A stretch of DNA of 64,000 bases from Polyangiaceae bacterium (GTDB taxonomy: Bacteria; Myxococcota_A; Polyangia; Polyangiales; Polyangiaceae): assembly GCA_033763455.1 (NCBI GenBank), contig JANRKO010000089.1, forward strand, positions 1 through 64,000, given 5' to 3'. This document shows, piece after piece, positions 454 to 58,275 of this stretch. The stretch's first letter is position 1, and each line of letters opens with the position of its first letter. Under the pieces are notes generated by a model, which saw only the letters and a program-made list of their open reading frames with translations, searched no databases and was not told the DNA's origin. The position numbers and the translations under genes are program-made.

Positions 454-598
454 GATACTTAGCATGCGAAGAATCGGAAGTGGTTTTGAAATGGGCCGCC
501 GGCAGCAGGCGAAAACAGCTAATCCGAACGCACCGCCCGCGGGGGCTCTCTGGGTGATTCTTAGCATGCGAAGAATCGGAAAATGGTTTTGAAATGGG
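454..598. repeat. Two-copy direct repeat (~42 bp, period 102 bp), each copy containing the 22-bp palindrome
   Basis: 454-495 GATACTTAGCATGCGAAGAATCGGAAGTGGTTTTGAAATGGG and 556-598 GATTCTTAGCATGCGAAGAATCGGAAAATGGTTTTGAAATGGG; non-coding region downstream of murJ. Confidence 0.95.
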
Positions 599-660
599 GC
601 GTTCACCCTTCGACGAAAGGTTGAGTTTGAAGCGAGAACGTGAAGCGAAAGTTTGTGAAA

Positions 661-2280
661 TTAGCGCCGAGTAAGGCCCATGCGACGTAGGAGTGGCCCG
701 GCTAAAGCCTGGAGCTCTTCGCTCTTGAACAGGTGGGCGAGGGTGAAAAAAGCTGTGCAAAAGGCGACGACGCCGATGGTTCCGGGCACGGCACGTTCCC
801 AGGGGCTTTGCCCAAGGTGCGCCGCCACAAAGTCCGCGGCGGCCCAGCTCACTCCACCGGCGAGTATTGCGGCGGAGCCATTTTTTAGGGCGGAAATGGC
901 GACAGGGCGGTGCTGGAGCCCTGGAAGACGCCGTTTGACGCGCCACCAAAGCAGCGACATCTGTACGGCCGAGGCGCAGGTAACTGCCAGGCTGATCCCA
1001 ACATGCCCGAGGCTATCTTTGAGGAGAACCGCGGCGGTGATGAAGGCTAAGAGGTCGCACGCACTTACTACGACGGGCGTCTTGGTGTCTCCGGTGGCGT
1101 AGAATGCGGATACCAATTGGCGCACGCAGGCTACCATCCATATCCCTGCGCCTTGCGCCATAAGGGCGAGTGCCGTTTGCTCGGCTTGAAGTGCAGAGAA
1201 CTTACCGCGCTGAAACAAAAGGACTACGATGGGGTGTGCAAGGGCAAAGAGCAGAGCACTGGCGGCAAAACCTACAAAAAGGGCAATCCGAAGGCCATAC
1301 GCAAAGGCATCGGCGGCTCCCCTTTCATCCTTCTTGGCAACGAGGGCCGCAAGGCTTGGCAGTGTGGCGGCTTGCAGTGCCATCACGAAGATCCCTTGGG
1401 GGAAATCGCACAAACGTAAGGCAAAATTGAAGTAACTTACGGGGCCTTCGCCCAAATCTGAGAGTAAGCGTCGCCCAACAATCACGTCGACGTAGTAAAT
1501 GCCGAGCCCAATGCAGACCGGCCCCATCCGGCGCAAAACCTCCCGCACGGCAGGGTCTCCGAAAGCGAAACGGGGTGGGGATGCGTAACCTATGGCGGCA
1601 AGGCTCGGCCACTGCGCGACCATCTGAAGTGCGCCACCCAAAAGGGCCCCGAATGCCATGGAAAGGACTGAATCAAGGCCACTTGCTGCCAATATTCCGG
1701 ACAAACCAAGGCCACACACAATGAACGCCACGTTGAGCAAGCCGGGCGCAAACGAACTTACTAGGAAGCGCCGATGCGTGTTGAGCGCAGCTACTCCTAG
1801 TGCCACCGTGCCAATCGTGAGTAAATAGGGAAAGAGCCAGCGCGTCAGAGTGACTGTGCGTTCGAATTGCTCCGGGGAATTCTTGAAACCTGAAGCGAAA
1901 ACGCTCACCAATTGAGGTGCAAACAGCACTCCGAGCCCGGTAAGTGCCACGAGCACCACGGTTGAGAGGCCCCGCAGAGACTGAAAGAAGCTCCGTGCTC
2001 GCACATCCCCCTCTTTCGCGCGCACTTCGGCCAAAACGGGAATTACGGCACTCTGCACTGCTCCTTCAGCCACCAGTTGCCTTAGCAAATTGGGGATCGT
2101 AAAGGCGATCCAAAATGCGTCAGTCTGCGCGGCGCTGAAAGCCGCTGCCAGAACTTGGTCTCGGCCAAGCCCGAGCACTCGGCTTGCTAACGTTCCTAAA
2201 CCAACGATGCCTGCCCGGCGCGTGATCTGAGCCGGCGCGTGTTCGCTGTTGCCCGGTTTTTCTTCAGTCGATGCCGACAT
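661..2280 (-). CDS. murJ: Lipid II flippase MurJ (MviN)
   Basis: SRVLGLGRD, DAFWIAFTIPNLLRQLVAEGA and FYATGDTKTP motifs; many hydrophobic segments; 539 aa. Confidence 0.95.
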   Translation of the reverse strand: MSASTEEKPGNSEHAPAQITRRAGIVGLGTLASRVLGLGRDQVLAAAFSAAQTDAFWIAFTIPNLLRQLVAEGAVQSAVIPVLAEVRAKEGDVRARSFFQSLRGLSTVVLVALTGLGVLFAPQLVSVFASGFKNSPEQFERTVTLTRWLFPYLLTIGTVALGVAALNTHRRFLVSSFAPGLLNVAFIVCGLGLSGILAASGLDSVLSMAFGALLGGALQMVAQWPSLAAIGYASPPRFAFGDPAVREVLRRMGPVCIGLGIYYVDVIVGRRLLSDLGEGPVSYFNFALRLCDFPQGIFVMALQAATLPSLAALVAKKDERGAADAFAYGLRIALFVGFAASALLFALAHPIVVLLFQRGKFSALQAEQTALALMAQGAGIWMVACVRQLVSAFYATGDTKTPVVVSACDLLAFITAAVLLKDSLGHVGISLAVTCASAVQMSLLWWRVKRRLPGLQHRPVAISALKNGSAAILAGGVSWAAADFVAAHLGQSPWERAVPGTIGVVAFCTAFFTLAHLFKSEELQALAGPLLRRMGLTRR

Positions 2281-2989
2281 GGGATGAAAGGCTGCGTGTT
2301 ACCACGTTCATCGCCAAAGCGAGATCTTCTTCGATGAGAGAGTCCAAGGCGCCCCGCCCGGTAAGGACAAACCGTGCGCGAGCGGGCCCGCTGATGCGAA
2401 AAGGTCCCCCCCCGCACTTCTGGCAGATAAGCCCACCGCGCACTGGATCGATGAACGAGCTCCGCCCTTCGGGGCAGGGGGTATCACAGCGAACACAGCG
2501 TTCAAATTCTAGTGCGAAGCCGGTAGTCGCCATCAATTGGAGGCCAAATTCCGCGAGTAGGAGGCCGCTTCTTCCGGCGTGCATTTCGACGTCCAGTGCA
2601 TCCAAGAGCGAGGTTGTTCGGGCATAGAGCTCGTGCTCACGGGTGCGCGCCGGTGCCACGTGGCGAAGCCAGCTAAGTGCGCGCCCAGCGGCTTCCATGC
2701 CTTCGAGACTCCTTAAGATTGTGCGGCGCGGAACTTTGAGTTGAGCTTCCTTCAGCGAAAGCAAGTCACGCCCGCTACGCTCCTCTATCTTCACGCGTAA
2801 CGTGTGGATAGGTTCGAGTGCGCCGCCGAAGCGTTTCTGACTTTTGCGGGCACTCCGCGCGACGGCGTCAACTCTGCCGAGCTGTTCTGTCATTAGCGAC
2901 AGGATAACGTCTGATTCGCCCAGCAGCGTCTGGTGAAGAATGAGAGCGTCGGTGTCGTGAACCTGAAGAGCAACGAAGTTGCGAGGCAC
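2264..2989 (-). CDS. recO: DNA repair protein RecO
   Basis: N-terminal OB fold (LGESDVILSLMT..GRVDAVARSARKSQKRFGGALEP); C-terminal CVRC...CQKC zinc motif. Confidence 0.92.
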   Translation of the reverse strand: MPRNFVALQVHDTDALILHQTLLGESDVILSLMTEQLGRVDAVARSARKSQKRFGGALEPIHTLRVKIEERSGRDLLSLKEAQLKVPRRTILRSLEGMEAAGRALSWLRHVAPARTREHELYARTTSLLDALDVEMHAGRSGLLLAEFGLQLMATTGFALEFERCVRCDTPCPEGRSSFIDPVRGGLICQKCGGGPFRISGPARARFVLTGRGALDSLIEEDLALAMNVVTRSLSSHVGID

Positions 2990-2992
2990 CGC

Positions 2993-3421
2993 TTACGACT
3001 GGGTAAGATGGGTGGAGGCCGGAGCTTGCGAGAGCTCTTGCGGCATGTCTTCGCCGCGAGGTTTCAGCACGATGCTGATGGCCAACGTGAAAAGAATGAG
3101 CAGCAATACGAAGGCAATGGCCACACCAAAACGACGGCCTCGTGTCGGACGCGCGGCAGACGACAGCTGCAACGGAGAGACGAAGGCAATACGCCGGCTA
3201 GCGGTGAACCGCGCGAGGACCTCGTCAGGGTTTAGCCCCACTGCACGTGCATAAGACTTCAAGAAGCCCCTCACGAACACTTCGCCTGGAAGTTCGTCAA
3301 AACGATCTGATTCCAGGCGTTCGAGGCTGCTCGCGGGCACGCGGGTCGCACGCGCGATCTCCTCCACGCTCATGCGCCGACTCTCTCGGTGCTCGCGGAG
3401 GTAGGTGCCCAGGGTTGCCAT
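2993..3421 (-). CDS. RodZ-like N-terminal HTH protein with one transmembrane helix
   Basis: LGTYLREHRESRRMSVEEIARATRV...LPGEVFVRGFLKSYARAVGL, then a hydrophobic helix. Confidence 0.85.
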   Translation of the reverse strand: MATLGTYLREHRESRRMSVEEIARATRVPASSLERLESDRFDELPGEVFVRGFLKSYARAVGLNPDEVLARFTASRRIAFVSPLQLSSAARPTRGRRFGVAIAFVLLLILFTLAISIVLKPRGEDMPQELSQAPASTHLTQS

Positions 3422-3433
3422 GAGCCGGCGAGA

Positions 3434-4237
3434 CTACTTGAGTTTCGCCAGAATGGAGCCGCATTCTTGGCCCACCGGCGTTTTTGCTGATAGCCGCAGG
3501 CAGCGCTCCAAGGACTCCCTCGCCTCGGCCGGGCGGCTCAATGCGATCAAGGTGCGGGCCCTGCCGGCCTCAGCCTCTTGCAGCGCTTGGCAGCTAGGGT
3601 GGTCTGTTTCCAGTGCTCTTGTAAAAGCGGCGAGGGCTTCGGAGAAATGTTTCTGGCGCTCGTGGGCGACCCCAAGCCGGAAGTTGCCCACGCAGAACAT
3701 TGGCTGCGCTGCAACTGCACGCGAAAGCGCATCGATGGCCGCGCTCGTTTGGCCGAGCTCTAGATAGGCCCAGCCCAGATTGCCCCACGCGTTTTCGGGC
3801 GTTGTGTAGAGCATGTCGTCGGCAAGCTGTTTGAGGACGGGTACGGCCTCGCGGGCGCGTTTCTCGTGGATCAGAATAACTCCGAGTGTGTTTCGGGCTT
3901 CGCGAAAGTCGTTGCGAGCGTTGAGGGCCGCGCGCGCGTATTTTTCCGCTTCGCTCAACCTGCACTCATCTGCGTTGCGCTGACAAAAATCCAGGTACAT
4001 GAGAGCGACCAGGTGCGCCGCTTCGGCATTCGCATCGTCCAGGTCAGCGGCGCGGAGCGCGTGCTTGAGCCCTTCGCGAGGTTGGCTTTGCCGAAGCCAA
4101 AGGTCGCGCGCGACTTCCATTTCGGCTTGGCTCATCCGCTCCGGATCTGAGCCGGGGGGCACGTTGTCCGGGCGTGGGCTGCAGGCTAGCGCCAACAGCG
4201 CAACGAGTAAGCTCGGAGGCAAGGCCGGGCGCCTCAT
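3434..4237 (-). CDS. tgl: TPR lipoprotein, Tgl/PilF-like type IV pilus pilotin
   Basis: Lipobox LLALAC; TPRs with ARNTLG and YTTPENAWGNLGWAY; several Cys; lies upstream of HTH and recO as recalled for myxobacterial tgl. Confidence 0.7.
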   Translation of the reverse strand: MRRPALPPSLLVALLALACSPRPDNVPPGSDPERMSQAEMEVARDLWLRQSQPREGLKHALRAADLDDANAEAAHLVALMYLDFCQRNADECRLSEAEKYARAALNARNDFREARNTLGVILIHEKRAREAVPVLKQLADDMLYTTPENAWGNLGWAYLELGQTSAAIDALSRAVAAQPMFCVGNFRLGVAHERQKHFSEALAAFTRALETDHPSCQALQEAEAGRARTLIALSRPAEARESLERCLRLSAKTPVGQECGSILAKLK

Positions 4238-4962
4238 CCGGCTTGGCCTGCGGGCTGTGGAGGCTGATGGTCCGGGAGGCGACCTGAGATCTGATCTTTT
4301 ATCCCCAACAGCCCATAGAGCTCACTTAAAGCGGCCAGGCTCGGGATCTCCACCTTTTCATTGACGATCTTCAGATAGCCCTGGTCTCGAAGTTGCTTCA
4401 CGGTGCGCTTCACCGTATCTACATCCAAACCAATCTGGGCCGATAGCTCAAGGGGGGAGATCACCAGGATCCCCTTTTCTGTGCCCTGAGCTTGGTTGTG
4501 TTCACAGAGCTTGATTAAAGCTGCCACCACCTTCGATTCCGATCCATCAAGCATCAAGATCTCGATCTGATCCTCGGCATCCCGCAGGCGGCGCACCAGC
4601 TGCTGCAAGATGCGCATGCCAATGTCGGGGTTGGTCGAAAGTACCTGTTGAAACATCGCGTGGTCCAGCGCCAAGAGGGTGCCATCCTCTAACGCCACGG
4701 CAGTGGTGTTGCGCCGCGCTCCAGGTAAAAGCGCCACTTCGCCAAACAGATCACCAGAGCGTAAGATGCGCAGGCTCCGTTCGCCTCCTCCGACTCTCTT
4801 AATCAGTCGAATGCGCCCTTCTTGCAGCAAGTATGCCTCTGCCGCATCGTCGCCTTCTCGAAAAAGTACGTCGCCTGCCGAGAAGCTACGGCCAAAGCGC
4901 GAGAGCAGGCGCTGGCGGTCGATGCTGGGCACGTCGCTTGGGGGAGGATCGGTCGTCACCAT
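4234..4962 (-). CDS. Crp/Fnr family transcriptional regulator
   Basis: cNMP-binding domain (LFREGD...GDLFGEVALL...RNTTAVA) plus C-terminal HTH. Confidence 0.9.
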   Translation of the reverse strand: MVTTDPPPSDVPSIDRQRLLSRFGRSFSAGDVLFREGDDAAEAYLLQEGRIRLIKRVGGGERSLRILRSGDLFGEVALLPGARRNTTAVALEDGTLLALDHAMFQQVLSTNPDIGMRILQQLVRRLRDAEDQIEILMLDGSESKVVAALIKLCEHNQAQGTEKGILVISPLELSAQIGLDVDTVKRTVKQLRDQGYLKIVNEKVEIPSLAALSELYGLLGIKDQISGRLPDHQPPQPAGQAG

Positions 4963-4979
4963 CTTGATGTTTTCCAGAA

Positions 4980-5678
4980 TTAGGGCCTTTGGAAAGGCGA
5001 GGCTACCAGCTTTGGCACAATGAGATTTGGTTCACGCACGTACACGGGCCGCGGAGCGAGCAGAGAAGCCTGTTCCAGGGAGGCGGCACCCGTCGGCCAA
5101 AGAGCCTTCCAGAACGTTTGGGCAGAGGGACGCTCCGAAAGCGGCGCGCGGGACACCCTCGAACGGAGCGGCAACGATTGGGCGATAGCCCCGACAAACG
5201 TGAGGGTTGCGGTCGGAAGGTTTTGGTCAAAAAATTCCTGCACCTGCTCCCCCGCGAGTACGGTCGGAGCCACAAGTTCATGTCCAGTAGCGTCGTACGC
5301 CGCCGCGAACACTTCTCCCTTTCGTGCATCGAGTAAGGGGCAGAGTACCGACGCGGGGGCCTGCGGCCGCGCCCCGGCTGCGAGCGCTGAGAGAGAAGTG
5401 ACGCCGATCATTGGAAGGCTGAGGCCCGCGGCTACGCCTTGCCCTAGGGCCAAGCCCACTCGGACTCCTGTGAACGAACCGGGCCCAACGCCCAAGATGA
5501 GGCAATCCAGCGCTTCCTTGCCAAAAGGAGCCTGCGCGAATAGCTGCTCTAGTAGGCCGAAGATGCGTTCGGCATGTCTCTCCGGCTCGTAGTGCTCCAG
5601 GGCCCCAACAATCTGGCCATCCTCAAACAAGGCCAGGGACGCCACTTCTGCCGAGGTCTCAATCGCCAATGCGCGCAT
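4980..5678 (-). CDS. tsaB: tRNA t6A biosynthesis protein TsaB
   Basis: MRALAIETS, GVGPGSFTGVRVG and LDARKGEVF motifs; start moved to ATG 5678 because the longer ORF overlaps the divergent PP2C gene. Confidence 0.92.
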   Translation of the reverse strand: MRALAIETSAEVASLALFEDGQIVGALEHYEPERHAERIFGLLEQLFAQAPFGKEALDCLILGVGPGSFTGVRVGLALGQGVAAGLSLPMIGVTSLSALAAGARPQAPASVLCPLLDARKGEVFAAAYDATGHELVAPTVLAGEQVQEFFDQNLPTATLTFVGAIAQSLPLRSRVSRAPLSERPSAQTFWKALWPTGAASLEQASLLAPRPVYVREPNLIVPKLVASPFQRP

Positions 5679-5801
5679 CAGCCATGGCATTATCATCTTT
5701 CCCCCCGGCGCGCGACGTGGGGGCCTTTCCGAAGACGCAGCCTGGGCCCGAACAAAATGCGGCTGCCCATGCGCGCTTGAACGCCGTATGCTTGAGGTAG
5801 T

Positions 5802-7001
5802 TTGCCGTTCCAGGTCGTCCCACGCTTTGACTTTCGTATTCGGTTCGCTGTTGCCAAATCCCAAGGCGACCGCGACCACGATCAAGATCGCTACTTAATG
5901 GCGCCCGAGCTGGGCTTGTTTGCAGTCGCAGACGGCATGGGTGGAGGCCACGCCGGCGATCTGGCTGCCGAGGGTGCCCTCAGAGCCTTGCGCGCTTCGG
6001 TGGCTGAGACGAAATCACAGCTGGCCGCCGACGCCTACAATCAGAATTCGGATCTTGAACATCGCCGCTACCTCCTGAAAAAGCTGCGCGGAGCGGTGGA
6101 GGCTGCGAATACGGCCGTGCGGCAGTTAGGCGTTGTGCAAGAGGGCAAGCGAGGTATGGGCTCCACGCTCGACGCTGTGTGGCTGGCGCGTAGTTCGGCG
6201 CTGGTAGCTCACGCGGGGGATAGCCGCGTCTATTTGGCGCGTGCGCGCACGGTGCTTCAGCTTACGCATGATCACGGCCACGTGGACGCCCTGACCGCGC
6301 AAGGGCTACTTCGCCCGGCCGTTCGCGTGCAGTCGAGCGCGCTCACCAATGCTGTTGGTCTGCGCGACGACATCTCCGTTGATACCGTGTTCGTTGAGTT
6401 AACTCGTGGTGATCGGCTGTTGTTGTGTACGGATGGCGTGCACAACGAAGTCCGCGGCGAGACGGAGCTTACGGATATTCTTCGCGGAGGCACCATCGAG
6501 CAAGCCGCCGAGGCTTTGGTGAAGCGCACGGGTAGGAGCGGGCGCGACAACGCTACCGCGCTTATTGTGGAGATTGGTGAGCGATTCGTTACCCGGCCCA
6601 ACCCGGACCGCGGCTTGGCTGCGCAAGATTTGGAGCACGCCTGCCAAACCCCTTTGCTCAGTGATCTGCCTCGGCCGTTGGTGCTCCAAGCGCTCGCAGC
6701 CGCCGTGGAAGTAGAAATCCCGGCGGGAGAAAGTGTTCCCCGTGTGGTGGCGAACGATCTGGTGGCGTATATCGTTCTGGCCGGGATGGTTCGTTGCCCG
6801 GGCGATCGACAGGTGACGACCGGCGCTCTCTTGTTTGGCGAGTCTTTGGTGGGCGTGTGGAAACAGGGCGTGCTCCCGGTGGCAGAAGAGCCCTGTCGGG
6901 TGTTGCGGATCCGCTACGACGATTTTCGCGAAGTGTGCGCTGACGCGGGGCTCGGAGCCGAGCTCTACCGAAGGCTCGCGTCCCATCTCGCCCGCAGCTG
7001 A
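5802..7001 (+). CDS. PP2C-family Ser/Thr phosphatase with C-terminal degenerate cNMP-binding-like domain
   Basis: VADGMGG, AHAGDSRVY, LLCTDG and GRDNAT motifs; C-terminal AYIVLAG...LFGESL; GAGGT upstream of TTG start. Confidence 0.88.
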   Translation: MPFQVVPRFDFRIRFAVAKSQGDRDHDQDRYLMAPELGLFAVADGMGGGHAGDLAAEGALRALRASVAETKSQLAADAYNQNSDLEHRRYLLKKLRGAVEAANTAVRQLGVVQEGKRGMGSTLDAVWLARSSALVAHAGDSRVYLARARTVLQLTHDHGHVDALTAQGLLRPAVRVQSSALTNAVGLRDDISVDTVFVELTRGDRLLLCTDGVHNEVRGETELTDILRGGTIEQAAEALVKRTGRSGRDNATALIVEIGERFVTRPNPDRGLAAQDLEHACQTPLLSDLPRPLVLQALAAAVEVEIPAGESVPRVVANDLVAYIVLAGMVRCPGDRQVTTGALLFGESLVGVWKQGVLPVAEEPCRVLRIRYDDFREVCADAGLGAELYRRLASHLARS

Positions 7002-7134
7002 GCTGATTGCTCTGAAAATGCGCTGTTTGATCGGCGAATTCACGCTCGATAAATGTTTTTCGCTTAGTGCTTGCAATCGCAAAGCAACCGACTACGTTGC
7101 GCGTCACCCTGCGGTTCGCCAAAGGGCCATGGTC

Positions 7135-7212
7135 CGGGGCGTGGCGCAGCCTGGCTAGCGCACTTGACTGGGGGTCAAGGGGTCGTGGGTTCGAATCCCG
7201 CCGCCCCGACCA
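7135..7212 (+). tRNA. tRNA-Pro (anticodon GGG)
   Basis: Acceptor stem CGGGGCG/CGCCCCG, anticodon stem CTTGA/TCAAG with loop CTGGGGG, T-loop TTCGAATC, encoded CCA end. Confidence 0.97.
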
Positions 7213-7269
7213 TCTTTCTCCCCCTTCGGCTCAAGGTTGGCCCAAGGGAGAGAAGGGCTTGGGCGCGCG

Positions 7270-8331
7270 TTACGGACAGCGCCGCCGCACTTCAGCGGCG
7301 TGAGGCCCGTTCGGGAACTCGCGAAGATAGCGGGCTTTGGTCTTGCGGCACTGCGCCTGGTTCCCAGACTGCTCGTAAGCCGCCACAAGCTGTGCCAGCG
7401 CGTCCGGCTGAAGGGGCGATTGCGGATCCGCTTTGACGGCTTGCTCCAGGGCTTTAGCTGCTGCTTGGGGTTGCCCACCTTCGCGCAAGCGCAATCGCCC
7501 GAGTTCTAGCGCCGCGACCCGCGAGTACTCATCGTTAGGATAGCGACGCACGAGTTCCCCGTAGAGCTCAATAGCCTCGGCCGTGTTCCCTTGGCGGCGG
7601 ACATCCGTCGCTTTGTTGAAAAGCAGTTTCGCCTCGGCACGCAGGTCGCGCACGGGTGCCCCTTTTGGAATTTCAGCAATAGGCGGTGCTTTAGCCGGTG
7701 CCTCCACAAGTGCAGCGGGCTTAGGTGAGCCTTCCCTTAACAAGAGGCCTCCACCCGACCAACGAGCCCCAGCCGTGAGCCGCGCAATGCGCTCACCGCT
7801 CTGGCGATCTACGACGTCCACCACTCCTCGTTCCACCGAGACCTCTGAATGGACCTCCGCGTCGCGGCTCTTGGACGTGCCTTTGGGCTCCACCCGCACG
7901 GTGAAGCGCGTGCCTCGCACTTGAACTTCGATGTCCCCAGCCACTACCGAAAACTGCCGCTCCGGCCTGTGGCTCACGTCAAAAGTTGCGCTACCCGAAG
8001 GCAACGCCACCCGCACCAGATTGGGGGACGCGGCGAGCACATTCAACTGAGAAAGCGGCTCTACTTGAGCCTCAGAACCATCACTCAGACGCACCGTTAC
8101 AGACTCACTCCGCGCTTCGACCACGGCGCCTGTGCCCAACCCTTCCGGATGGGCTCGGAAAACCAGCACAAGAGATGCTGCAACGGCCATCGCCGCAGCT
8201 CCAGCAGCCAACCGGCGTCCCCACTGCCTGTTGCGTTTCCTCTGTTGGAGCTTGCGCGCGGTGCCTTCCCAAGCGCTCTTAATTTCCGCTTCGGGAAGGG
8301 GTTCGATCAGAATGTAGTCAGCAGGTTTCAT
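7270..8331 (-). CDS. FecR-domain anti-sigma factor with C-terminal TPR region
   Basis: TM helix, LSDGS, GSATFDV, VQVRGTRFTV and VSVERGVVDV FecR motifs; TPR tail ending YLREFPNG; directly downstream of an ECF sigma gene. Confidence 0.85.
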   Translation of the reverse strand: MKPADYILIEPLPEAEIKSAWEGTARKLQQRKRNRQWGRRLAAGAAAMAVAASLVLVFRAHPEGLGTGAVVEARSESVTVRLSDGSEAQVEPLSQLNVLAASPNLVRVALPSGSATFDVSHRPERQFSVVAGDIEVQVRGTRFTVRVEPKGTSKSRDAEVHSEVSVERGVVDVVDRQSGERIARLTAGARWSGGGLLLREGSPKPAALVEAPAKAPPIAEIPKGAPVRDLRAEAKLLFNKATDVRRQGNTAEAIELYGELVRRYPNDEYSRVAALELGRLRLREGGQPQAAAKALEQAVKADPQSPLQPDALAQLVAAYEQSGNQAQCRKTKARYLREFPNGPHAAEVRRRCP

Positions 8332-8366
8332 GGCTTATCTCCCGCACGAGGCGGCTAAGTTTGTTC

Positions 8367-8972
8367 TTACGTGCCCCCGCGCGCGAGGCGATCAAGTTCG
8401 TCTCTGAGTTCCACCTCCGCGGAGGCGATACGGCGTTTAACGGTGGAGAGGCTGAGCTCCAGAGCTTCCGCTACTTCGGCGTTTGTGAGCCCTTCGACCC
8501 GGCTCAACTCCAAAATTATGCGAGAATCAACTCGGAGCCCAGCAATGGCGCGGTAGGTCGCCCGAAGGTCCGCCGCCACATCTGGCGGGGCTTCGCGCGA
8601 GAGAACAACTTCGTCGTGGCTCGTGTCTGTACCACTCAGGCCAAGGCGTCGAGCGATCCCCCGGCGCCGGAGCCGGTTGCGTACCACGCGAATCGCGATG
8701 CCCCGCAACCAGCTGGAGAAGGCCTCCGGTGTACGAAGACTCGCGATGGACTCCATGGCTTGGACGAAGGTGTCTTGCACCAGATCTTCAAGCTCACGAT
8801 CGTTGGGAACGAGTCGAAAGACCAGCCCGCGTACGGACGAAAAGTGTCTGTAAAATAGCTGGGCCTGGGCTGCTTCGTTGCCCTGCTGGACCTGACGAAC
8901 GAGCTCGGCATCGCTTGCGCCGTCTTTGGCGGAACGGACCGAACTGATCAAACGAAGCACTTGCGCGACCAC
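8367..8972 (-). CDS. ECF sigma-70 factor
   Basis: EDLVQDTF and FSSWLRGIA (region 2); EGLTNAEVAEALELSLSTVKRR (region 4). Confidence 0.92.
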   Translation of the reverse strand: MVAQVLRLISSVRSAKDGASDAELVRQVQQGNEAAQAQLFYRHFSSVRGLVFRLVPNDRELEDLVQDTFVQAMESIASLRTPEAFSSWLRGIAIRVVRNRLRRRGIARRLGLSGTDTSHDEVVLSREAPPDVAADLRATYRAIAGLRVDSRIILELSRVEGLTNAEVAEALELSLSTVKRRIASAEVELRDELDRLARGGT

Positions 8973-9085
8973 CGTTTCCTCTTGCCAGGAGTAGTACCCC
9001 AGACGGGTGTTTTCGGTTCATCAGGATGTTTTGGGGTGAATAGGCCCCATGGTCAGACTGGCCGCGGCTGCGTACGCTTCCGGCC

Positions 9086-9571
9086 GTGAGGCTCCCTCGA
9101 CGGCTATTTCTGGCGGCAGGTATCGGTTTTCTCGGGTGCAAGCGCACTTATCGAGTGGGGGAGTTCGTTCTGGTGCAGTGGGAGGAAGCAGCGTACCCAG
9201 CCTACATCGTCGAAGCGAAAACCAACGGCCGTTTACGAGTTCACTACGATGGCTACGACACGCGCTGGGACGAAGACGTCGGGCCCGAGCGGGTATTGGG
9301 CCTCGCCAAGCAGCCAGTGTTTCGGCCGCCTCCTCCTGAAAAAGTGCGCCGCCTCGAGGGTAATCTGGGGTCGACCGGCGCAGCCTCCGTCACACCTCCT
9401 TCGCCCTACCGGGTGGGTGACCACGTAAAAGTGCGCTGGCGCGGCTCGGTGTACGGGGCGAGCATCGTTGCGGTGATTTCAAACGACCGATTTCTCGTTC
9501 ACTACGATGGTTATGAAAGTGCGTGGGATGAGCCAGTGGGGCTGGAGCGAATAGTGGCCAGGAGGCCTTAG
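9086..9571 (+). CDS. Exported lipoprotein with two Tudor-knot/chromo-barrel-like domains
   Basis: Signal PRRLFL...GFLGC; repeats VHYDGYDTRWDEDV and VHYDGYESAWDEPV separated by a Pro-rich linker. Confidence 0.75.
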   Translation: MRLPRRLFLAAGIGFLGCKRTYRVGEFVLVQWEEAAYPAYIVEAKTNGRLRVHYDGYDTRWDEDVGPERVLGLAKQPVFRPPPPEKVRRLEGNLGSTGAASVTPPSPYRVGDHVKVRWRGSVYGASIVAVISNDRFLVHYDGYESAWDEPVGLERIVARRP

Positions 9572-9622
9572 TGCCCGTTGGGGGCCTGGCCGGCATAGGT
9601 GTCGCGATGCTAATACTTTGGC

Positions 9623-10168
9623 ATGTCGGACAACACATCGTCCAACCTGGCGGTGAACCTCAAACGCTTACGGGAGACGCGCGGCCTTAGCCAGCAAGCC
9701 TTGGCCGAGCTTTCGGGTGTGCCGCGACCGACCGTTGCGCATCTGGAATCCGGCAACGCCAATCCAACCGTGCTCGTGCTTATGCGCGTGTGCCAAGCGG
9801 TGGGCGTTTCAATGGATCAGCTTGTCGAGAGCCCCGGCGTGGGCGCGCGGTTCTACGCCAAACAGAGCCTTCCGAGGCGCTCCCGTGCGGGCACGGTCAT
9901 TTCTCAGATCATGGTGGATCCACCGCCGGGGCACGGCATCGAACGCCTTGAGCTCGCGCCCAAGGCGAGGCATGCGGTGCCCGGTCAATCTAACGGCAAG
10001 CGTTACCTTGCATGTGAAGATGGGGAGCTTGAGGTGGATGTCGAGGGGGCCATGTATCGGCTCGAGGCGGGCGACGTGATCACGTTACGCGGTGAGGTGG
10101 GGCACGAGTATAAAAATTCTGGACGAAAGCCCGCCGTGGCCTACTGTGTCACCGTTCCCCAAGGGTAG
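9623..10168 (+). CDS. XRE-family HTH regulator with C-terminal cupin domain
   Basis: LKRLRETRGLSQQALAELSGV..LESGNANPT; cupin GELEV...LEAGD...HEYKN. Confidence 0.9.
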   Translation: MSDNTSSNLAVNLKRLRETRGLSQQALAELSGVPRPTVAHLESGNANPTVLVLMRVCQAVGVSMDQLVESPGVGARFYAKQSLPRRSRAGTVISQIMVDPPPGHGIERLELAPKARHAVPGQSNGKRYLACEDGELEVDVEGAMYRLEAGDVITLRGEVGHEYKNSGRKPAVAYCVTVPQG

Positions 10169-10230
10169 CTGCCAATCGGCCGATAGCGAAGCCAAGCAGT
10201 GCCTGGGCTTTGACCCGGGCGGTCTGCGCG

Positions 10231-11925
10231 TTAGCTTATGGAGACGTTCTCGCTGTCTAGCTCGACCGCGGGCGTGGGATCGGAAACACGAGGCAAGTTG
10301 TGTTCGAGCCAAGCAACCAAGCGCGCCGTCCCTTCTTTGCCGAGTGCCGAGCACGGGACCCCCGCACTGCCATGCTCAATTGCCTCCCTCGTTTCGCTAT
10401 CCACCAGATCGATCTTGTTGAAAATCCGCAGCCTCGGCAGCGAATCAAGCTCAAGGGCCCGCAATAACTCGTCAGTGGTGCTGAGGTGCGCTGGCATCTC
10501 CGGATCCGAGGCGTCCAACACTTCTAAGAGAAGATCGGCGTCGGCCGTTTCTTCGAACGTAGAGCGAAAAGCGGCAAATAGATCTTTGGGCATGTCGCGA
10601 ATGAAGCCCACAGTGTCCGTGAGCACAGCCGCGAGCCCGCTTGGGAGGCGTAGGCGCCGTGCGCGGGTTTCAAGCGTGGCAAAGAGTTTATCTTCCGCCA
10701 ACACTCCTGCGTGCGTCAGGGTGTTCAACAACGTGCTCTTACCTGCATTCGTGTAGCCAACGATGGCTACCACCGGAACCGAACCGGCCCCGCGCTTGCG
10801 TCGCCGTTCTGAGCGTTGCCGAGAGAGTGTGCGAAGCTCGCGCTCCAATCGATCAATGCGTTCGCGCGCACGCCGGCGCCCTACTTCAAGCTTCGTTTCG
10901 CCAGGACCCCGGCCACCGATTCCACCGGTGAGCCTGCTCAACGCGTCATCTTTGGTTCCAAGCTTGGGCAAGCTGTACTTTAGCTGTGCTAATTCAACCT
11001 GAGCTTTGCCATCGCGCGTCTGCGCTCGCTGCGCAAAAATATCCAGGATGAGCTGCGTGCGGTCGATAACCCGCAGATCCGTCTTGCTGGCGATGGAGCT
11101 CACCTGAGTGGGGCTCAGATTGCAGTCAAAAATGAGCGTCTCTACGTCTTGCTCGATAGCGCGAAGCACCACTTGCTCTAGGCGCCCGCGGCCCAGCACA
11201 AACTTTGGATCCACGCTATCTCGCAGTTGTTGGATCTTGTCGATCACGTCCACCCCGGCGGTACGCGCCAAACTCTCAAGCTCGGTAAGGCGGGAATGGG
11301 CGTGCCGAGCTGCATCACGGGTTCGCTTCTCGCCGACGTGGATTAGGATCGCGCGGCCATCTTTGCTTTGCGTGGAGCGTGTGCGCGCCTTGTGGCGAAA
11401 CTCATCCTCAAGGGCCGAAATGAGTTCCCCAAAGTTGGGAGATGGATGCCCCCACGGGAAAGGCCCCTCCACTTGGTAGCTGGGCTCGGCGCCCTCAAGT
11501 GTGCCCGGGGTGTTGTACGCCCATGTAACACTGCGTGGCTCACCCTCAAGGTTGAGCAGGATCGCTGCAACAAGGTCCAGCCGCAAACGAGTGAGGTCCG
11601 TAAGATCGTCGCGCGTGAGTGGCTCGGCAAACAAGTGCGTGTGAATCAGTCGCAGTGCGCGAAACCGCCCGTCGGCTGCACGCAGACGCCCGATATCTGG
11701 CAGCATGATGCCGGTAGCGTTGCCGACCACCACATAATCCACCTGGCCAGAGCGATGTACGAGCGCCCCCACTTGCCGCTTAGATTCACGCGAGGCCTCC
11801 GCGAGCGAGCGGGCGAGCTCGGGAGTGAAGATGGTATCCGCAGGTACGCGCCGCCGATAGACACGCTCAAGAGCTTTAATGGCTCGCGGGGCGAGCCCGC
11901 TCACGTTTCCGTAGATTTCGGGCAT
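10231..11925 (-). CDS. hflX: GTPase HflX (long N-terminal form)
   Basis: GIGGRGPGETKLE, GYTNAGKST, LFATL, DTVGFI and NKID motifs. Confidence 0.95.
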   Translation of the reverse strand: MPEIYGNVSGLAPRAIKALERVYRRRVPADTIFTPELARSLAEASRESKRQVGALVHRSGQVDYVVVGNATGIMLPDIGRLRAADGRFRALRLIHTHLFAEPLTRDDLTDLTRLRLDLVAAILLNLEGEPRSVTWAYNTPGTLEGAEPSYQVEGPFPWGHPSPNFGELISALEDEFRHKARTRSTQSKDGRAILIHVGEKRTRDAARHAHSRLTELESLARTAGVDVIDKIQQLRDSVDPKFVLGRGRLEQVVLRAIEQDVETLIFDCNLSPTQVSSIASKTDLRVIDRTQLILDIFAQRAQTRDGKAQVELAQLKYSLPKLGTKDDALSRLTGGIGGRGPGETKLEVGRRRARERIDRLERELRTLSRQRSERRRKRGAGSVPVVAIVGYTNAGKSTLLNTLTHAGVLAEDKLFATLETRARRLRLPSGLAAVLTDTVGFIRDMPKDLFAAFRSTFEETADADLLLEVLDASDPEMPAHLSTTDELLRALELDSLPRLRIFNKIDLVDSETREAIEHGSAGVPCSALGKEGTARLVAWLEHNLPRVSDPTPAVELDSENVSIS

Positions 11926-12021
11926 GCAGAAGGGCTCGGGACGCAGCTGAGCTTAGCACGCTTCGGGGGGCGATTCGTGGGGTCTTGGGCTGGGCTCGGC
12001 ATTTCGGCATAGTGCCCACCA

Positions 12022-12975
12022 ATGGCACTCCTTACCCCAATCACAGAAGCCGAAGCCAAACGGCTGCTTGCTGAATACGGCCTTCCGCTTGAGCAGATCG
12101 AGGCACTTAGCTTGGGCTCCGTGAATTCCAATTTCCGCTTGCGAATGCAAAATGGCTCGCTGTTTTTCGCCAGGATCTACGAAGAGCAGGGCAGGGAAGG
12201 AGCTGCGATGGAAGTGGCGCTCTTGGCGGGGCTCGCTCAAATGGGGCTGCCAGTAGCCGAAGCTGTGCGCCAGTCAAACGGCGAATGTATCGCTAGCTTC
12301 AAGGGGAAACCCTTTGCTGTTTTTCCTTGGATTGAAGGGACGATAACCTGCCAGAGCTTGGTGAGTTCGGCGCGAGCCTTTAAAATCGGCGAAGCGCTCG
12401 CGCGCCTGCATGTTGCAACGGCGTCTTTGCCAAGCTTGAACCCAAGTCGATTTGGGGTGCCAGAGATCTTCGCACGCCTAGACACGGTGCTCGCTGCCGG
12501 AGGCGGAGCGTTCGACGAGGTTGTGGAGGATATCCGCGCGAAGCTTCGGCATTATGCGGAGCTCCGGGATGGGTCGCTTCCGAAGGGCGTGATCCACGGC
12601 GACTTATTTCGAGATAACGTGCTGTGGCGTGGCGACGAACTCGCCGCGTTGCTGGATTTCGAGAGCGCAAGTTACGGGGTCTTCATGTACGACTTGCTCG
12701 TGACTGTGCTCGCGTGGTGCTACGGCTCCAAGCTCGATGTTGAGCTCGCTCGTGTCATGGTGCGCGGCTACGAGTCCGTACGACCGATCAGTGCCGAAGA
12801 GCGGCAGGGGGCGCTCGCCGAAGGTGCCATCGCGTGCCTGCGGTTCGCGACCACGCGCATCACGGATTTTTCCTTGCGAGCAAAGCCTGGCGAGGCTCCC
12901 GTTAGGGACTTTCGTAGGTTTTTGGCTCGGCTTAGGGCGCTCGAAGGGGGCGCACTCGCTGAATTCATGGGCTGA
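12022..12975 (+). CDS. thrB: Homoserine kinase type II (APH-like fold)
   Basis: GSVNSNF, LPKGVIHGDLFRDNV and LLDF motifs. Confidence 0.85.
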   Translation: MALLTPITEAEAKRLLAEYGLPLEQIEALSLGSVNSNFRLRMQNGSLFFARIYEEQGREGAAMEVALLAGLAQMGLPVAEAVRQSNGECIASFKGKPFAVFPWIEGTITCQSLVSSARAFKIGEALARLHVATASLPSLNPSRFGVPEIFARLDTVLAAGGGAFDEVVEDIRAKLRHYAELRDGSLPKGVIHGDLFRDNVLWRGDELAALLDFESASYGVFMYDLLVTVLAWCYGSKLDVELARVMVRGYESVRPISAEERQGALAEGAIACLRFATTRITDFSLRAKPGEAPVRDFRRFLARLRALEGGALAEFMG

Positions 12976-13068
12976 GGGTAAGGGCACGGCTGGGCCAATC
13001 GAGGGTCCGCCCTTGAAAGATCCTGAGCAAGGTGGCACCCCTCCGGGCTCGTTGACACGGAGGATTTC

Positions 13069-14463: not shown

Positions 14464-14675
14464 CGCTGTCGGCGAGGGGCAAGCAAAGGGCTTTGGTCAG
14501 CTTCTGGGGAGGCCCGTACCCCGGGCATTCTACTCGGCTTTTGGGCCTAAGTTGGCTCCTCGGGTGTTGCGCTGGATGTGAGGTGATGAAGGCGCAGAAG
14601 GAGTGCTTGCAATTCGAGGTTAGCGCTGTTGCCATAGAAAGGCTGTGACCAAGATAAGATCGAACGGAGTGCCGC

Positions 14676-16816: not shown

Positions 16817-16945
16817 CGTTCGGGGGGTCGCCCAAGGAGCGGTGCGGGTGAGTTGGTGGCTTGCGATTCGAAGCCAGGGCCTGTGAGGCCGTCGCTTCGC
16901 GTGCCTCGATTCGAAGCCGGTGAGCGTAGTTTCGTGTGGGCGATT

Positions 16946-16967
16946 GGTACTTAGCATAGCAAGTAAA
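16946..16967. repeat. Copy of the dispersed 22-bp palindrome (CATA-core variant)
   Basis: GGTACTT-AGCATAGC-AAGTAAA between the kinase and thiL. Confidence 0.7.
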
Positions 16968-17126
16968 TGGGTGGAGAGTGTGATTAGCCAATCTCTATCG
17001 CGTCGAAGGGGGGAGCACTTGTGAAGGCTCGTGAGAGGCTAAGGGTTAGGGGGCCACATAGTGAGCCTAGCGAAGACTTGCCTCGACGTATTCCTCACGT
17101 CACTTCACTTTGCTAACGTAGGCTAC

Positions 17127-18230: not shown

Positions 18231-18658
18231 AATCCGTTTGGGATCCGTACGGAAATTAACGGGGAACAATCTCGCATTTCATTAACTGAGGGGCTGTTCG
18301 CACACGAGTGATCGTGCGCTCACGGGGCGTTCAGCCCTCTCCGGCGCGCGCCGTGTGGTAAGCGCGTTGAGCGCTTTAGGTTACCGACACGCGCGCGGCG
18401 AAGAGGCGCTCGGCCGCGTGGATGCTTGCCGAGCACGGCCGGCCGTGTTTTTCTGCCCCCTAGGGGGAGCATCAAACAAAGCTGACGCCCGGAGTTTCGC
18501 CGTGGCCGACCTTAAAGATCCATCCGCGGCGCGGCGCATTCATCGCCGGGGGATGTTAACTTCTTTGCGGTGTTAGCGCGAGCTCGCCTCGAACGGAGGG
18601 GCGGTCACCTCGATTCGCGTTCAAGATGCGCCTTGACCTGCCATGCGCGACACCGAGA

Positions 18659-18680
18659 GATACTTGTCATGCTAAGTAGT
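18659..18680. repeat. Copy of the dispersed 22-bp palindrome
   Basis: GATACTT-GTCATGCT-AAGTAGT inside a longer imperfect inverted repeat, between convergent genes. Confidence 0.8.
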
Positions 18681-18778
18681 TCTCGTGTGAGAGAAAGGGC
18701 TCGTGCCGAGCCGGACACCACCGTCAAGCAGAAGCGCTCTCGACCGTTTCCGAGACGCCTGGCTAACGCATCCGCAAG

Positions 18779-19207: not shown

Positions 19208-19359
19208 CCCACGTGTCCTCTCGGGGTACGTAAACCCAATCGATCCTTACTACTCTCTGCTTCGGCTGCCCAGGGGCCCCGTCTGGATCAACCAGCAGCG
19301 CTCGTGACGCCGCTGGCTGATAGACGATTAGGTGCAGAAAACGAACCGGCGGCCGGGGC

Positions 19360-51495: not shown

Positions 51496-51496
51496 G

Positions 51497-52579: not shown

Positions 52580-52596
52580 TTTTGATTGGTGGGTAG

Positions 52597-52612
52597 CCTA
52601 ACACGTGTTAGG
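52597..52612. promoter_or_regulatory. Putative LacI-type operator
   Basis: Perfect 16-bp palindrome CCTAACACGTGTTAGG with central CG in the 50-bp divergent spacer. Confidence 0.75.
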
Positions 52613-52629
52613 TTCCCTCTACCTCAACT

Positions 52630-53787: not shown

Positions 53788-53804
53788 GCTTTGGAGCTGA
53801 GCCA

Positions 53805-56122: not shown

Positions 56123-56170
56123 GTGAATCGCAGGCATCCGAGCGCCTAGGCGCCCGGCGCGTTGGGTAAC

Positions 56171-56854: not shown

Positions 56855-57250
56855 GGTTGGTCTCCCTGAAAGGAAGCTGAGCGTAGCTCAAACTGGGTTC
56901 TTCACGCAAAGTGCACGATAAGTAACCAGTGCCTCTTCAGGCACTTAGCGTGAGCGGTGTGGTGCTGCCGCCGCCAAGGTGAGCACTTTTTCTAAGAGCA
57001 CTCGGGTGTCGGTTTCGTAGAGACGTGTGCGGGCATCTGTTCGAACTGGCACGTGACGAGCGAAGGATGGCGGCGGAGCCCGGAGCTTGGGCAAATGAGG
57101 GCTTCATGCACGGTACTGCCGCGAGGCGCCCCGTATTGTCAGAATTTTCTGCAAGGGAGCTGCCTTTTCTGGGGATACCTGCGAAAAGCCCCCGAATCAT
57201 CGTTGCGCGTTCGCACGAGGCGGCGCACAACTGAGCCCGTCAACCTCCCG

Positions 57251-57682
57251 ATGGAAAACTTCACTCCACTCACCTCTCTTGCTGGCGGACTCGTGATCGG
57301 CCTCGCATCCGCGTTGTTGCTCTTGTTGAACGGGCGCATAGCCGGAGTAAGTGGCATTGCTGGCGGGCTCTTGCGCTTCAAGCGCCACCATATGTTGTGG
57401 CGGGCGTTATTCGTAGCTGGGCTTGTGGCTGGCGGCGTGGTTTGGAATGCGTGGGCGCCGCAAGCTTTTGCATTCAAGCTTGAGCGGAGCTCTTGGGCTT
57501 TGATTGGCGCGGGCCTGCTCGTTGGGTTTGGCACTCAGCTTGGTGACGGCTGCACCAGTGGGCATGGGATCTGCGGCCTGAGCCGTTTTTCTCCGCGGTC
57601 GCTCGTAGCTGTATTGACGTTCATGGGTGCCGCGGCAATCACCGTGTTTGTGGTCGGGCGTTTTTTTGGGGGCACGCTATGA
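57251..57682 (+). CDS. YeeE/YedE sulfur-compound transporter family protein
   Basis: GRIAGVSG and GCTSGHGICGLSRFSPRS motifs; start ATG 57251. Confidence 0.9.
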   Translation: MENFTPLTSLAGGLVIGLASALLLLLNGRIAGVSGIAGGLLRFKRHHMLWRALFVAGLVAGGVVWNAWAPQAFAFKLERSSWALIGAGLLVGFGTQLGDGCTSGHGICGLSRFSPRSLVAVLTFMGAAAITVFVVGRFFGGTL

Positions 57683-58206
57683 ATCCAAGCGTAACCGACG
57701 GCATGGTTTCTAAAGGTCACGTTGACGACGCCACTCCAGGCTCCTTACGGTTCCTGGTAACCTCCTTCGTGAGTGGGCTCTTGTTTGCGTCCGGGCTAGT
57801 TCTGAGTGGGATGACGCGTCCTTCGAAGATCGTCGGCTTCTTCGATTTTTCAAGGGGGCTCGCGAGTTGGGATCCGAGCCTGGCGTTCGTGATGGCGGGA
57901 GCCATGGCCGTCTACGTGCCAGTTTGGCTACTCGTAAAGAAAAGAGAGCGCCCGCTGTTCGATCTGCGTTTTCACCTGCCAACACGCAGAGCCATTGACC
58001 CAAAGTTGGTCACGGGCGCGCTCTTGTTCGGCGTGGGGTGGGGGATAAGCGGCTTCTGTCCGGGCCCTGCGTTGGTGAGCCTAGGAGCGCTGTCCAAAGC
58101 CGGCATTCCGATGGTCGGCGGTATGGTGTTGGGGATCGTTGGCTTTCACACGCTGGAAAAGTGGCGTGGAGCGAAGGTCGCGCGAGCTCCGCAGGTAAGG
58201 GATTAA
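57679..58206 (+). CDS. YeeE/YedE partner membrane protein
   Basis: GLVLSGM, WDPSLAFVM and FGVGWGISGFCPGP motifs; ATGA overlap with the previous gene. Confidence 0.88.
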   Translation: MNPSVTDGMVSKGHVDDATPGSLRFLVTSFVSGLLFASGLVLSGMTRPSKIVGFFDFSRGLASWDPSLAFVMAGAMAVYVPVWLLVKKRERPLFDLRFHLPTRRAIDPKLVTGALLFGVGWGISGFCPGPALVSLGALSKAGIPMVGGMVLGIVGFHTLEKWRGAKVARAPQVRD

Positions 58207-58253
58207 CCTGGAGAGGGCAAGCGTGAACCGAAGGGGGATTCTGAGAAGTGGGA

Positions 58254-58275
58254 GAAACTTGTCATGGCAAGTTTC
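58254..58275. repeat. Copy of the dispersed 22-bp palindrome
   Basis: GAAACTT-GTCATGGC-AAGTTTC between the convergent YeeE partner and methyltransferase genes. Confidence 0.8.

Follow-up and report, generated by a model that had tools for sequence, protein, structure and literature searches.

What is the 22-bp palindrome that recurs between the genes of this myxobacterial DNA, and what keeps it there? The window analysed here is a 64,000-nucleotide stretch of a draft Polyangiaceae genome (G000), in which an initial annotation made from the letters alone reported five copies; all five were found at the positions it gave (Table 1). The exact core CTTNNCATGNNAAG occurs four times in the window, at positions 458, 560, 18663 and 58258, and the fifth copy (16950) differs from it by one mismatch. 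Copies 1 and 2 form a tandem pair 3' of murJ, copy 3 is flanked by genes for a histidine kinase and an AIRS-family protein, both on one strand, copy 4 has an outer AAAGGG motif on its right side, some 25 bp from the centre, and copy 5 separates a DUF6691 gene from an N6/N4 methyltransferase gene. None of the five is occupied by an insertion sequence (IS). Our matrix gives only −28.9 and −20.5 bits to two sites, 16857 and 43982, that had been listed as weaker relatives, and the second, described as a half-site, is not one of the 33 half-site matches. An Rfam search of the window returned a tRNA and no other family, and nothing fell at palindrome sites among the loose ends listed for four public runs against window positions 1-20000. 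Within the window alone the statistical signal is weak (six matches with at most one mismatch versus a shuffle mean of 1.9, with six reached in 3 of 100 shuffles), so that genome-wide counts must decide whether the palindrome is real.

Table 1. Palindrome copies and the two-copy array in the 64-kb window
Feature	Position	Strand	Details
Palindrome copy 1	452..477		26-bp unit; spacer 461-468 = predicted target duplication; 32.7 bits
Palindrome copy 2	554..579		spacer 563-570; 25.0 bits
Two-copy array, family D5	443..581		start-to-start 102 bp; 84% identity across 37 bp
Palindrome copy 3, degenerate	16944..16969		spacer 16953-16960; 19.7 bits
Palindrome copy 4, convergent spacer	18657..18682		8-bp spacer 18666-18673; 35.4 bits
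Palindrome copy 5, convergent spacer	58252..58277		8-bp spacer 58261-58268; 27.0 bits

The whole-genome matrix scan that the annotation proposed places the palindrome far above chance. G000 contains 123 exact cores (3.8-6.1 expected under Markov models) and 156 matrix matches of at least 16 bits, compared with 3 in the reversed genome. These 156 matches make up 126 loci, with one inside a predicted gene. Single copies account for 105 of the 126; the members of arrays are spaced 57-242 bp apart, and array units are common to loci far apart in the genome. Conservation extends over about 26 bp (GAGRTACTT-NNCATGNN-AAGTAYCTC), and 25-32 bp from the palindrome centre there is a weak outer motif of AAA plus a G/C run. 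Convergent spacers hold 32 of 114 loci but represent only 13.6% of gaps (p = 5e-5), which bears out the suspected enrichment at about twofold. Between tandem genes, 39 loci are closer to the stop and 19 closer to the start, divergent spacers (24 of 114 loci) are under-represented relative to gaps (p = 0.05), and orientation relative to transcription is unbiased (16 to 13). Loci occur about once every 50 kb and follow a Poisson distribution (variance/mean of 0.99 across 90 50-kb bins, on 40 contigs of unknown order), as judged from a 92-contig draft that cannot reveal terminus exclusion. Eleven loci lie less than 600 bp from contig ends versus 2.1 expected, an excess that arises in part because IS copies break the assembly. 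Comparison of 238 neighbouring genes all against all revealed no common family and no candidate cognate factor. Two of 11 Uma2-like genes are within 1 kb of a site, and IS91-like fragments and Rpn-like genes (named by eye) were rejected as partners, being at least 3.7 kb from any site on the same contig.

No cognate protein is encoded in the window, as the annotation had stated; the gene for the cognate enzyme sits on a different contig, in a 1,519-bp element of the IS4 family, IS50/Tn5-like, at C49:56054-57572 of G000. Its transposase scores 277 bits against NCBIfam NF033590 (cut-off 160) and matches the Tn5 transposase with an E value of 2e-32; the two are homologous over residues 19-458 (PDB 3ecp, 1muh), with the YREK motif complete (Y-2-R-3-E-6-K aligned to Tn5). 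Element size and duplication length (8 bp) fall in the range of the IS50 subgroup, which Table 1 of PMC2266710 gives as 1350-1550 bp and 8-9 bp. Relative to the consensus CW------Y---CA-A--W-, the IS ends match at positions 1, 2, 9 and 13 and miss two later positions each. Among 13 end-motif rows, one with four mismatches and without BLAST support was left out, and all 12 exact ends adjoin the left arm and the 8-bp spacer. The spacers at these ends pair into six 8-bp duplications, so that the spacer is the target duplication; because the flanks do not match at the one G000 copy that is assembled in full, the duplication was derived by pairing contig ends, and three of the six pairs have an identical spacer and are indistinguishable. 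These data establish the palindrome centre as the insertion site of an IS50/Tn5-like element, in register and with duplication of the 8-bp spacer. Four of the six insertions are within arrays. In a plasmid collection the best matches were just 31-33% identical.

The element moves between sites in natural populations. In sequencing run X1, IS ends are present at C92:70396 and C23:308234, both of which are empty in G000, and in run X2 the C49/C27 site that is filled in G000 is empty with a single spacer, each on single contigs of depth 2-7 from one study. A third run (X4) contains an IS variant about 95% identical whose flank is unlike the G000 arms. Within G000, the empty site C47:108301 carries an 8-bp duplicated spacer and the empty sites C6:552693 and C7:22547 carry 9-bp duplications; all three of these footprints are in arrays, and they would stem from excision of the IS.

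In three congeners a variant palindrome, TAGTAAGCATGCTTACTA, is present in 110 (G001), 112 (G002) and 143 (G003) copies, and it was found in neither G000 nor the other 147 family genomes. An IS 70% identical to that of G000 occupies this variant in G001 and G002. With a pattern of the IS end only, the variant adjoins all 17 ends in G001 and 9 of the 10 ends in G002; the tenth G002 end, inside an open reading frame, is likely a chance match. One G001 copy has both duplications intact. Palindrome and IS have changed to match in the sister species, with both arms changing jointly from one species to another (CTT/AAG in G000, GTA/TAC in congeners). A search for IS ends in G003 found none, although this genome has a half element truncated precisely at the spacer, suggesting that an IS was once active there. 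The exact G000 motif had one single match in 40 relatives, ACTTAG-N0-14-CTAAGT had 1-4 matches in just four of them, and a generic pattern run on 383 family genomes matched the genus only, plus one single match; a 20-bp pattern gave at least 111 scattered single matches in unrelated taxa across a wider contig collection, which we took as chance.

Palindrome positions are mostly at different loci in the congeners and in G000: 20 of 21 syntenic congener copies (18 of 19 with orthologous pairs merged) lack a G000 site and align as insertions of about 150-400 bp. The congener copies are oriented wholes, 49 being AB and none AA or BB among 63, and exchange of half-sites in both orientations was rejected on this count. 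Across 27 G003 loci, every position but one between −11 and +8 is 96-100% conserved, compared with mostly 56-96% in the flanks. A flank-only search of 342 kb of congener DNA recovered seven loci, six of them with a perfect core.

The annotation had proposed that the arms co-vary to preserve the dyad. Within G000 this does not hold, as symmetric pairing is at the level predicted by the consensus alone: symmetric pairs observed versus predicted number, for instance, 72 versus 69, 105 versus 101 and 59 versus 55, and in the spacer 59 versus 65 and 36 versus 43. Left and right flanks are not correlated (Spearman 0.007), and the commonest spacer (36 of 123 cores) mispairs when folded as a hairpin. 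Because the two halves vary independently, the palindrome is likely read as double-stranded DNA rather than as a hairpin, to judge from these sequence statistics. A long hairpin extending beyond the core was rejected as well (left-right similarity 5.70 within copies versus 5.85 across copies).

Our preferred reading, to which we assign a probability of about 0.7, is that an IS50/Tn5-like element inserts at the centre of this dispersed intergenic repeat (156 copies), and that the repeat likely spreads and persists independently of that IS. Six palindrome-rich genomes, G003 included, have no detected IS, which suggests that the IS likely exploits an existing repeat rather than making it. None of the five palindrome-rich genomes tested has an IS homologue, two of them being assembled in 10-20 contigs, and the result is soft, since draft assemblies easily lose IS copies. 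The high-copy motifs of the genomes with no detected homologue fit a pattern derived from IS targets and are identical to no observed target.

Mechanistically, the transposase would likely read the two arms on double-stranded DNA and cut 8 bp apart; its dimer may recognise the arms directly, with no host adaptor. The IS would gain some 150 landing pads between genes, where insertion is likely harmless, and would track them as the palindromes diverge. In the congeners, the repeat might spread as cargo of an IS1380-type miniature element. Some congener copies end in inverted repeats of an element other than the IS50-like one; among 49 copies scored by eye, 17 keep one IS1380-type terminal repeat and 4 keep both. 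Duplications of 5 bp are present at C6:380755-381427 in G000 and at locus L175. An intact IS1380 transposase (PF13701) was found in none of five genomes; one decayed fragment matched NF033539 (E 2e-4, far below cut-off), 4 of 39 IS1380-type pieces in G000 lie less than 300 bp from a palindrome site, and a congener profile matched no G000 site. As for an origin from a retron or msDNA, a search for reverse transcriptase (PF00078) gave no match in G000 and matches in G001-G003. The core itself might be kept constant by selection or gene conversion while the flanks erode.

Alternatively, the IS50-like transposase might build and homogenise its own landing pads, as a DDE counterpart of RAYT-REP, with other copies serving as repair templates for breaks from central excision, and pairs of IS copies moving and multiplying array units. 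We regard this as unlikely. It would fit the G003 loci, where conservation is highest at the cut site and decays outward, the concentration of footprints and insertions in arrays, the array units shared by distant loci, the trace of past IS activity in G003 and the grouping of the G000 and G001 transposases in one five-row clade (support 96, quick tree). The six genomes with no detected IS speak against it, as do the oriented congener copies, some of which end in another element's repeats. It is not obvious how a cut-and-paste enzyme of strict site specificity would reach new loci, and cutting of preferred sites should erode rather than fix them. The general form of the idea is equally doubtful, namely that myxobacterial Tn5 relatives are strictly site-specific, with 20-26 bp targets re-specified in each species, and that their transposases cut, convert and multiply these targets, which are left behind after loss of the IS.

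Sites such as parS, matS, NBS and SBS organise bacterial chromosomes, and a comparable role was the first option of the initial annotation. The primary role of the palindrome could be to bind a host chromosome or topology protein, with the IS as a parasite possibly recruited through that protein; we hold this to be improbable. Halves that fit the consensus independently, as for a protein dimer, cores that persist without the IS, the density of the loci, the perfect cores recovered from flanks alone and a phased outer A-tract that is also seen in other IS targets are consistent with such a site. Nevertheless, the positions differ between congeners and G000, the sequence differs among sister species, the loci do not cluster in this draft, and the neighbouring genes offered no candidate protein.

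In a loose sense the repeat is REP-like, as the annotation's second option had it: it is dispersed, lineage-specific and IS-targeted, with over 100 extragenic palindromic copies, a bias towards 3' ends and convergent spacers, and clustering in short arrays. That it is a REP/REPIN hairpin of the classical kind, mobilised by a RAYT (HUH/Y1) enzyme, or else an RNA stem at 3' ends, is nonetheless highly improbable and largely refuted: PF01797 has no match in any of the four genus genomes (94-95% complete, controls positive), the commonest spacer mispairs, the arms show no compensation or hairpin selection, transcription orientation is unbiased and the Rfam search yielded no such family. An unpaired GTAG/CGTC tag is likewise missing from the G000 matrix, and the RTAG of the congeners falls inside the dyad. 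The third option, a tyrosine-recombinase core, or a serine-recombinase crossover site, is more remote still; arms do flank an 8-bp spacer that is cut, G000 has 12 Phage_integrase matches and loci are in excess at contig ends, but the enzyme shown to act there is of the DDE transposase type, a site lies less than 1 kb away for only 1 of the 11 tyrosine recombinase genes, resolvase (PF00239) has no match in four of four genomes, the congeners lack swapped-orientation hybrids and the contig-end excess is partly an assembly effect. An operator of a single transcription-factor regulon is the least credible reading, since the dyad layout and the 24 divergent loci are offset by under-used divergent spacers, proximity to stops, unrelated neighbouring genes and positions that are not conserved.

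Repeat-targeting IS elements are already known. ISRm22 of Sinorhizobium meliloti (IS4 family, IS4Sa; PMC1525189, PMC2266710) resembles the G000 IS in that every copy is found in dispersed palindromes, there REP elements, at the axis of symmetry, and some copies have hybrid flanks; it differs in subgroup (IS4Sa versus IS50) and duplication (6 versus 8 bp), whereas AT-rich arms and clade-wide, element-specific targets that change with the transposase distinguish the G000 system. The Neisseria dRS3/NIME repeats (PMC1797815) share short arms, a variable 8-bp spacer, array units of about 50-150 bp, targeting by a mobile-element transposase and a spreading agent that is unproven, but the sequences are unrelated, most G000 loci are single copies, and the targeting enzyme is phage-encoded for dRS3 rather than of DDE IS50 type. 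GTAG/CGTC-tagged REPs with RAYTs (PMC3733652) are similarly high-copy, intergenic, lineage-specific clustered palindromes; unlike them, the G000 repeat occurs in a genus without a Y1 transposase, with no hairpin selection and no unpaired tag. The REP-targeting elements ISPpu9, ISPpu10 and ISPa11 (IS110 family, PMC1525189) also have all copies at a fixed repeat position, but use a different chemistry, and ISPa11 makes no duplication whereas the G000 IS duplicates the spacer. Tn5 itself has a loose 9-bp target preference (PMC1525189), in contrast to the confinement of the G000 IS to one repeat. A literature search did not find a co-diverging IS50 clade with changing repeat targets.

If the IS merely exploits the repeat, the strategy is already known and the gain is a new subgroup and its co-divergence. 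If self-building were true, it would constitute a DDE-driven repeat system parallel to RAYT-REP, with hundreds of species-specific palindromes written into genomes. Species-specific high-copy palindromes without RAYT form a class spanning several genera of one myxobacterial family, and the spread and preservation of bacterial repeats become testable in a new setting. Tn5 transposase, in standard use as a tool, chooses its targets loosely. Each of its relatives here appears to keep to a single site of 20-26 bp; together they are likely a naturally occurring set of Tn5-like transposases with site specificity, from which compact site-specific integrases consisting of one protein might be obtained. 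Sister enzymes that share 60-70% identity and use different arms offer a ready-made swap series for identifying the residues that set DDE target specificity. The related transposases have their own palindromes with 8-bp spacing. Of 80 metagenome loci, 19 show an exact 8-bp duplication and 4 show one of 9-10 bp; another 19 retain both ends but no exact duplication, and 38 lack an end. In 24 distinct loci, arm symmetry averages 4.9 of 6 positions within a locus, compared with 2.9 across loci.

The palindrome is a genuine repeat, present throughout the genus, on which a Tn5 relative lands strictly. All five copies reported in the window by the initial annotation were recovered; the window is C89:1-64000 of the source genome G000, a 6.56-Mb draft (59% GC, 92 contigs). 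The genome-wide matrix scan recommended there (26-bp symmetric matrix, ≥16 bits) returned 156 sites in G000 vs 3 in the reversed genome, and exact CTTNNCATGNNAAG cores numbered 123 vs 3.8-6.1 expected. These 156 sites fall into 126 loci, of which 105 hold one site, 14 two, 5 three and 2 four, with 57-242 bp between sites in arrays. No clustering along G000 was detected, the loci being Poisson-distributed over 90 bins of 50 kb. The two 'weaker relatives' once listed beside the five copies scored far below zero on the matrix.

With our own gene calls (5,097 genes, 86% coding), only one of the 156 sites across G000 falls within a predicted gene, in agreement with the earlier claim that copies lie outside genes. 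The 114 loci flanked by two called genes occupy convergent (32), tandem (58) and divergent (24) spacers, and another 11 loci are at contig edges. Convergent spacers show an approximately twofold enrichment (p = 5e-5 when gaps are counted, 3e-4 when bases are). Tandem-spacer sites were closer to a stop in 39 cases and to a start in 19.

The arms had also been said to co-vary, but within G000 symmetric pairing nowhere clearly exceeded the consensus prediction. The most frequent spacer (36 of 123 cores) mispairs when folded as a hairpin, left and right flanks show no link among copies, and flank similarity is no higher within one copy than between copies. The lack of excess pairing, the mispairing of the commonest spacer and the unlinked flanks together suggest, from sequence, two independent half-sites that would be read on double-stranded DNA. 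A weak AAA and G/C run lies 25-32 bp out on both sides.

The palindrome is an insertion site, its spacer is the sequence duplicated, and an IS moves among the sites. Comparison of site flanks pointed to repeated contig ends that are the ends of a single element, the IS50/Tn5-like IS on contig C49 (see table). Its transposase scored 277 bits against NF033590 (cut-off 160) and aligned with the Tn5 transposase at E 2e-32, including YREK. Scoring of 8,000 candidates gave at least 3,173 homologues at E 1e-30. When only the end sequences were searched for in G000, 13 rows were obtained, of which 12 were exact and all 12 came after the left arm plus the 8-bp spacer; the thirteenth (4 mismatches, no BLAST support) was dropped. 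Spacers at these 12 ends can be matched as six duplications, and one spacer is common to three of them. The flanks of the sole assembled copy do not match each other, which likely reflects a collapsed assembly or a recombinant.

The initial annotation had suggested looking for rearrangement in reads, and public runs X1 and X2, here single contigs of depth 2-7 from one study, provide a direct test of IS movement. In X1, IS ends occur at C92:70396 and C23:308234, both empty in G000, and in X2 the C49 left flank is fused to the C27 flank with one spacer, the empty allele. Run X4 carries an IS variant (~95% identical) whose flank is unlike the G000 arms. Three empty G000 sites, all within arrays, have a duplicated spacer (8 bp once, 9 bp twice), probably as excision footprints.

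Site and element differ jointly between sister species. The G000 motif gave one match among 40 relatives, and a variant palindrome was found de novo in 382 kb of relatives' DNA; three congeners (G001, G002 and G003) carry 110, 112 and 143 copies, respectively, and none were found in the other 148 genomes of the same scan. The G001 transposase is 70% identical to that of G000. When IS ends were sought by an end-only pattern, all 17 in G001 and 9 of the 10 from G002 adjoined the variant palindrome in the same register as in G000, the tenth G002 match being inside an open reading frame; G003 yielded no ends with this pattern. One G001 copy retains both duplications.

In the congeners the repeat forms an oriented unit a few hundred bp long; among 63 copies, half-sites were arranged AB in 49 and AA or BB in none. 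Conservation is 96-100% in its core and mostly 56-96% in the flanks, in a set collected by BLAST that may favour intact cores. A flank-only search of 342 kb of congener DNA gave seven loci, six with a perfect core and one cut exactly at the spacer. Of 49 congener copies, 21 sit between genes adjacent in G000, 20 of them (18 of 19 with two orthologous pairs merged) without a G000 site there; among the alignments listed, congener copies are insertions relative to G000. Another 28 of the 49 could not be placed, five of which have a G000 site near one orthologue. A terminal inverted repeat, read by eye, is kept in 17 of the 49 copies and is common to a decayed G000 element family with a weak IS1380 match. 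In G000 only 4 of 39 such pieces lie within 300 bp of a palindrome, so the family is not tied to it there.

A quick tree built from 79 transposases places those of G000 and G001 inside a 47-row clade (support 99). Eighty metagenome loci comprised 19 with an exact 8-bp duplication, 4 with 9-10 bp, 19 with both ends and no exact duplication, and 38 lacking an end. Over 24 distinct loci with both ends and at least 57.5% identity, arm positions matching across the centre numbered 4.9 of 6 within a locus vs 2.9 between loci, and the outer A-tract recurred weakly in other targets. Targets are shared within transposase sub-clades and differ between them, which shows an association rather than proven co-evolution because kin share hosts. 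A degenerate target pattern gave 27-201 matches in nine of 317 family genomes (six genera), vs 0-9 in controls and 0-15 in most of the 317; none of five of these nine genomes tested, two of them assembled into 10 and 20 contigs, had the transposase.

These data bear on how the repeat arose. Six palindrome-rich genomes lack a detected IS, which makes it less likely that the IS is the sole maker, although the half element cut at the spacer in G003, the location of footprints in arrays and the peak of conservation at the cut would allow it. We favour a repeat that would have existed before the IS and spread independently of it, probably carried in the congeners by an IS1380-type miniature element; a transposase dimer would read its arms, and either protein binding or conversion would preserve its core. 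The RAYT and linked tyrosine recombinase raised initially were searched for and not found, nor was a resolvase. The system offers a naturally occurring series of Tn5-like enzymes that differ in target, and poses the question of what preserves the core.

If the IS only exploits the repeat, the strategy is already known. REPs are targeted by IS elements of five families, with every copy of ISRm22 (IS4) in REPs at the palindrome axis (PMC1525189); the size, ends and 8-9 bp duplication of the IS50 subgroup are set out, with strong target-arm specificity for the IS4 subgroup and ISRm22 (PMC2266710); dRS3, in which arms of 6 bp enclose an 8-bp spacer, occurs in arrays and is targeted by a phage enzyme (PMC1797815); and GTAG or CGTC tags and RAYTs are features of REPs (PMC3733652). 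A word search of the last for myxobacteria gave no match, and passages of PMC3372372 contained nothing specific. Our literature search, drawn largely from open-access papers, found neither this palindrome repeat nor a repeat-specific IS50 clade described.

Other features are collected in the table, in which the labels Rpn, Uma2 and IS91, like VapBC, parS, matS, NBS and SBS, are presumptive, the first three being assigned by eye. No IS91-like fragment or Rpn-like gene lies close to the palindrome. The second repeat in the window gave 21 arm-pair matches in G000 vs 0 in the reversed control and resembles a RAYT-type REP, but the search for a Y1 transposase was negative.

Coordinates and remarks for the IS and for other features (contigs are of G000 unless stated)
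Feature	Location	Remarks
IS50/Tn5-like IS	C49:56054-57572	1,519 bp; encodes 466-aa transposase
Second dispersed repeat	window 296-395	GC-rich arms; 15 BLAST matches in G000
tRNA gene	window 7135-7209	
Weaker relative	window 16857-16876	CTT-8-AAG spacing kept; ~90 bp from copy 3; far below matrix threshold; could be an old array member
Three sites (L435)	C64:73140-75394	bracket likely toxin-antitoxin pair and Uma2-like gene; 220-bp duplication; another repeated element at contig end
Seven-gene cluster, twice	C33:116599-124802; C62:35431-43623	≥85% protein identity
IS91-like fragments, several near-identical Rpn-like genes	C13, C48, C66, C67, C86, C31, C90; C33, C76, C23, C52	
Decayed IS1380-type miniature family (L220, L221)	C43:128221-129245; C6:380755-381427	39 pieces in G000; strong internal hairpin; 5-bp duplication at C6 copy
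Six-base unit, ~12 repeats	G001 L020:9064	replaced part of repeat's right flank; core intact
High-copy species-specific palindromes	L413-L427 (G116, G072, G287), G128, G172, G173, G175	arm-8-arm layout; some arrayed
More distant IS4 relatives	L259-L271 (G012); L229, L239, L245 (G047); L243, L248 (G007); L224 (G004)	those of G012 and G047 occupy other repeated palindromic or G-run targets; G012 has 27 matches, two end types
Related dyad, four copies	G005 C108, C121, C196, C277	12-bp inner spacer
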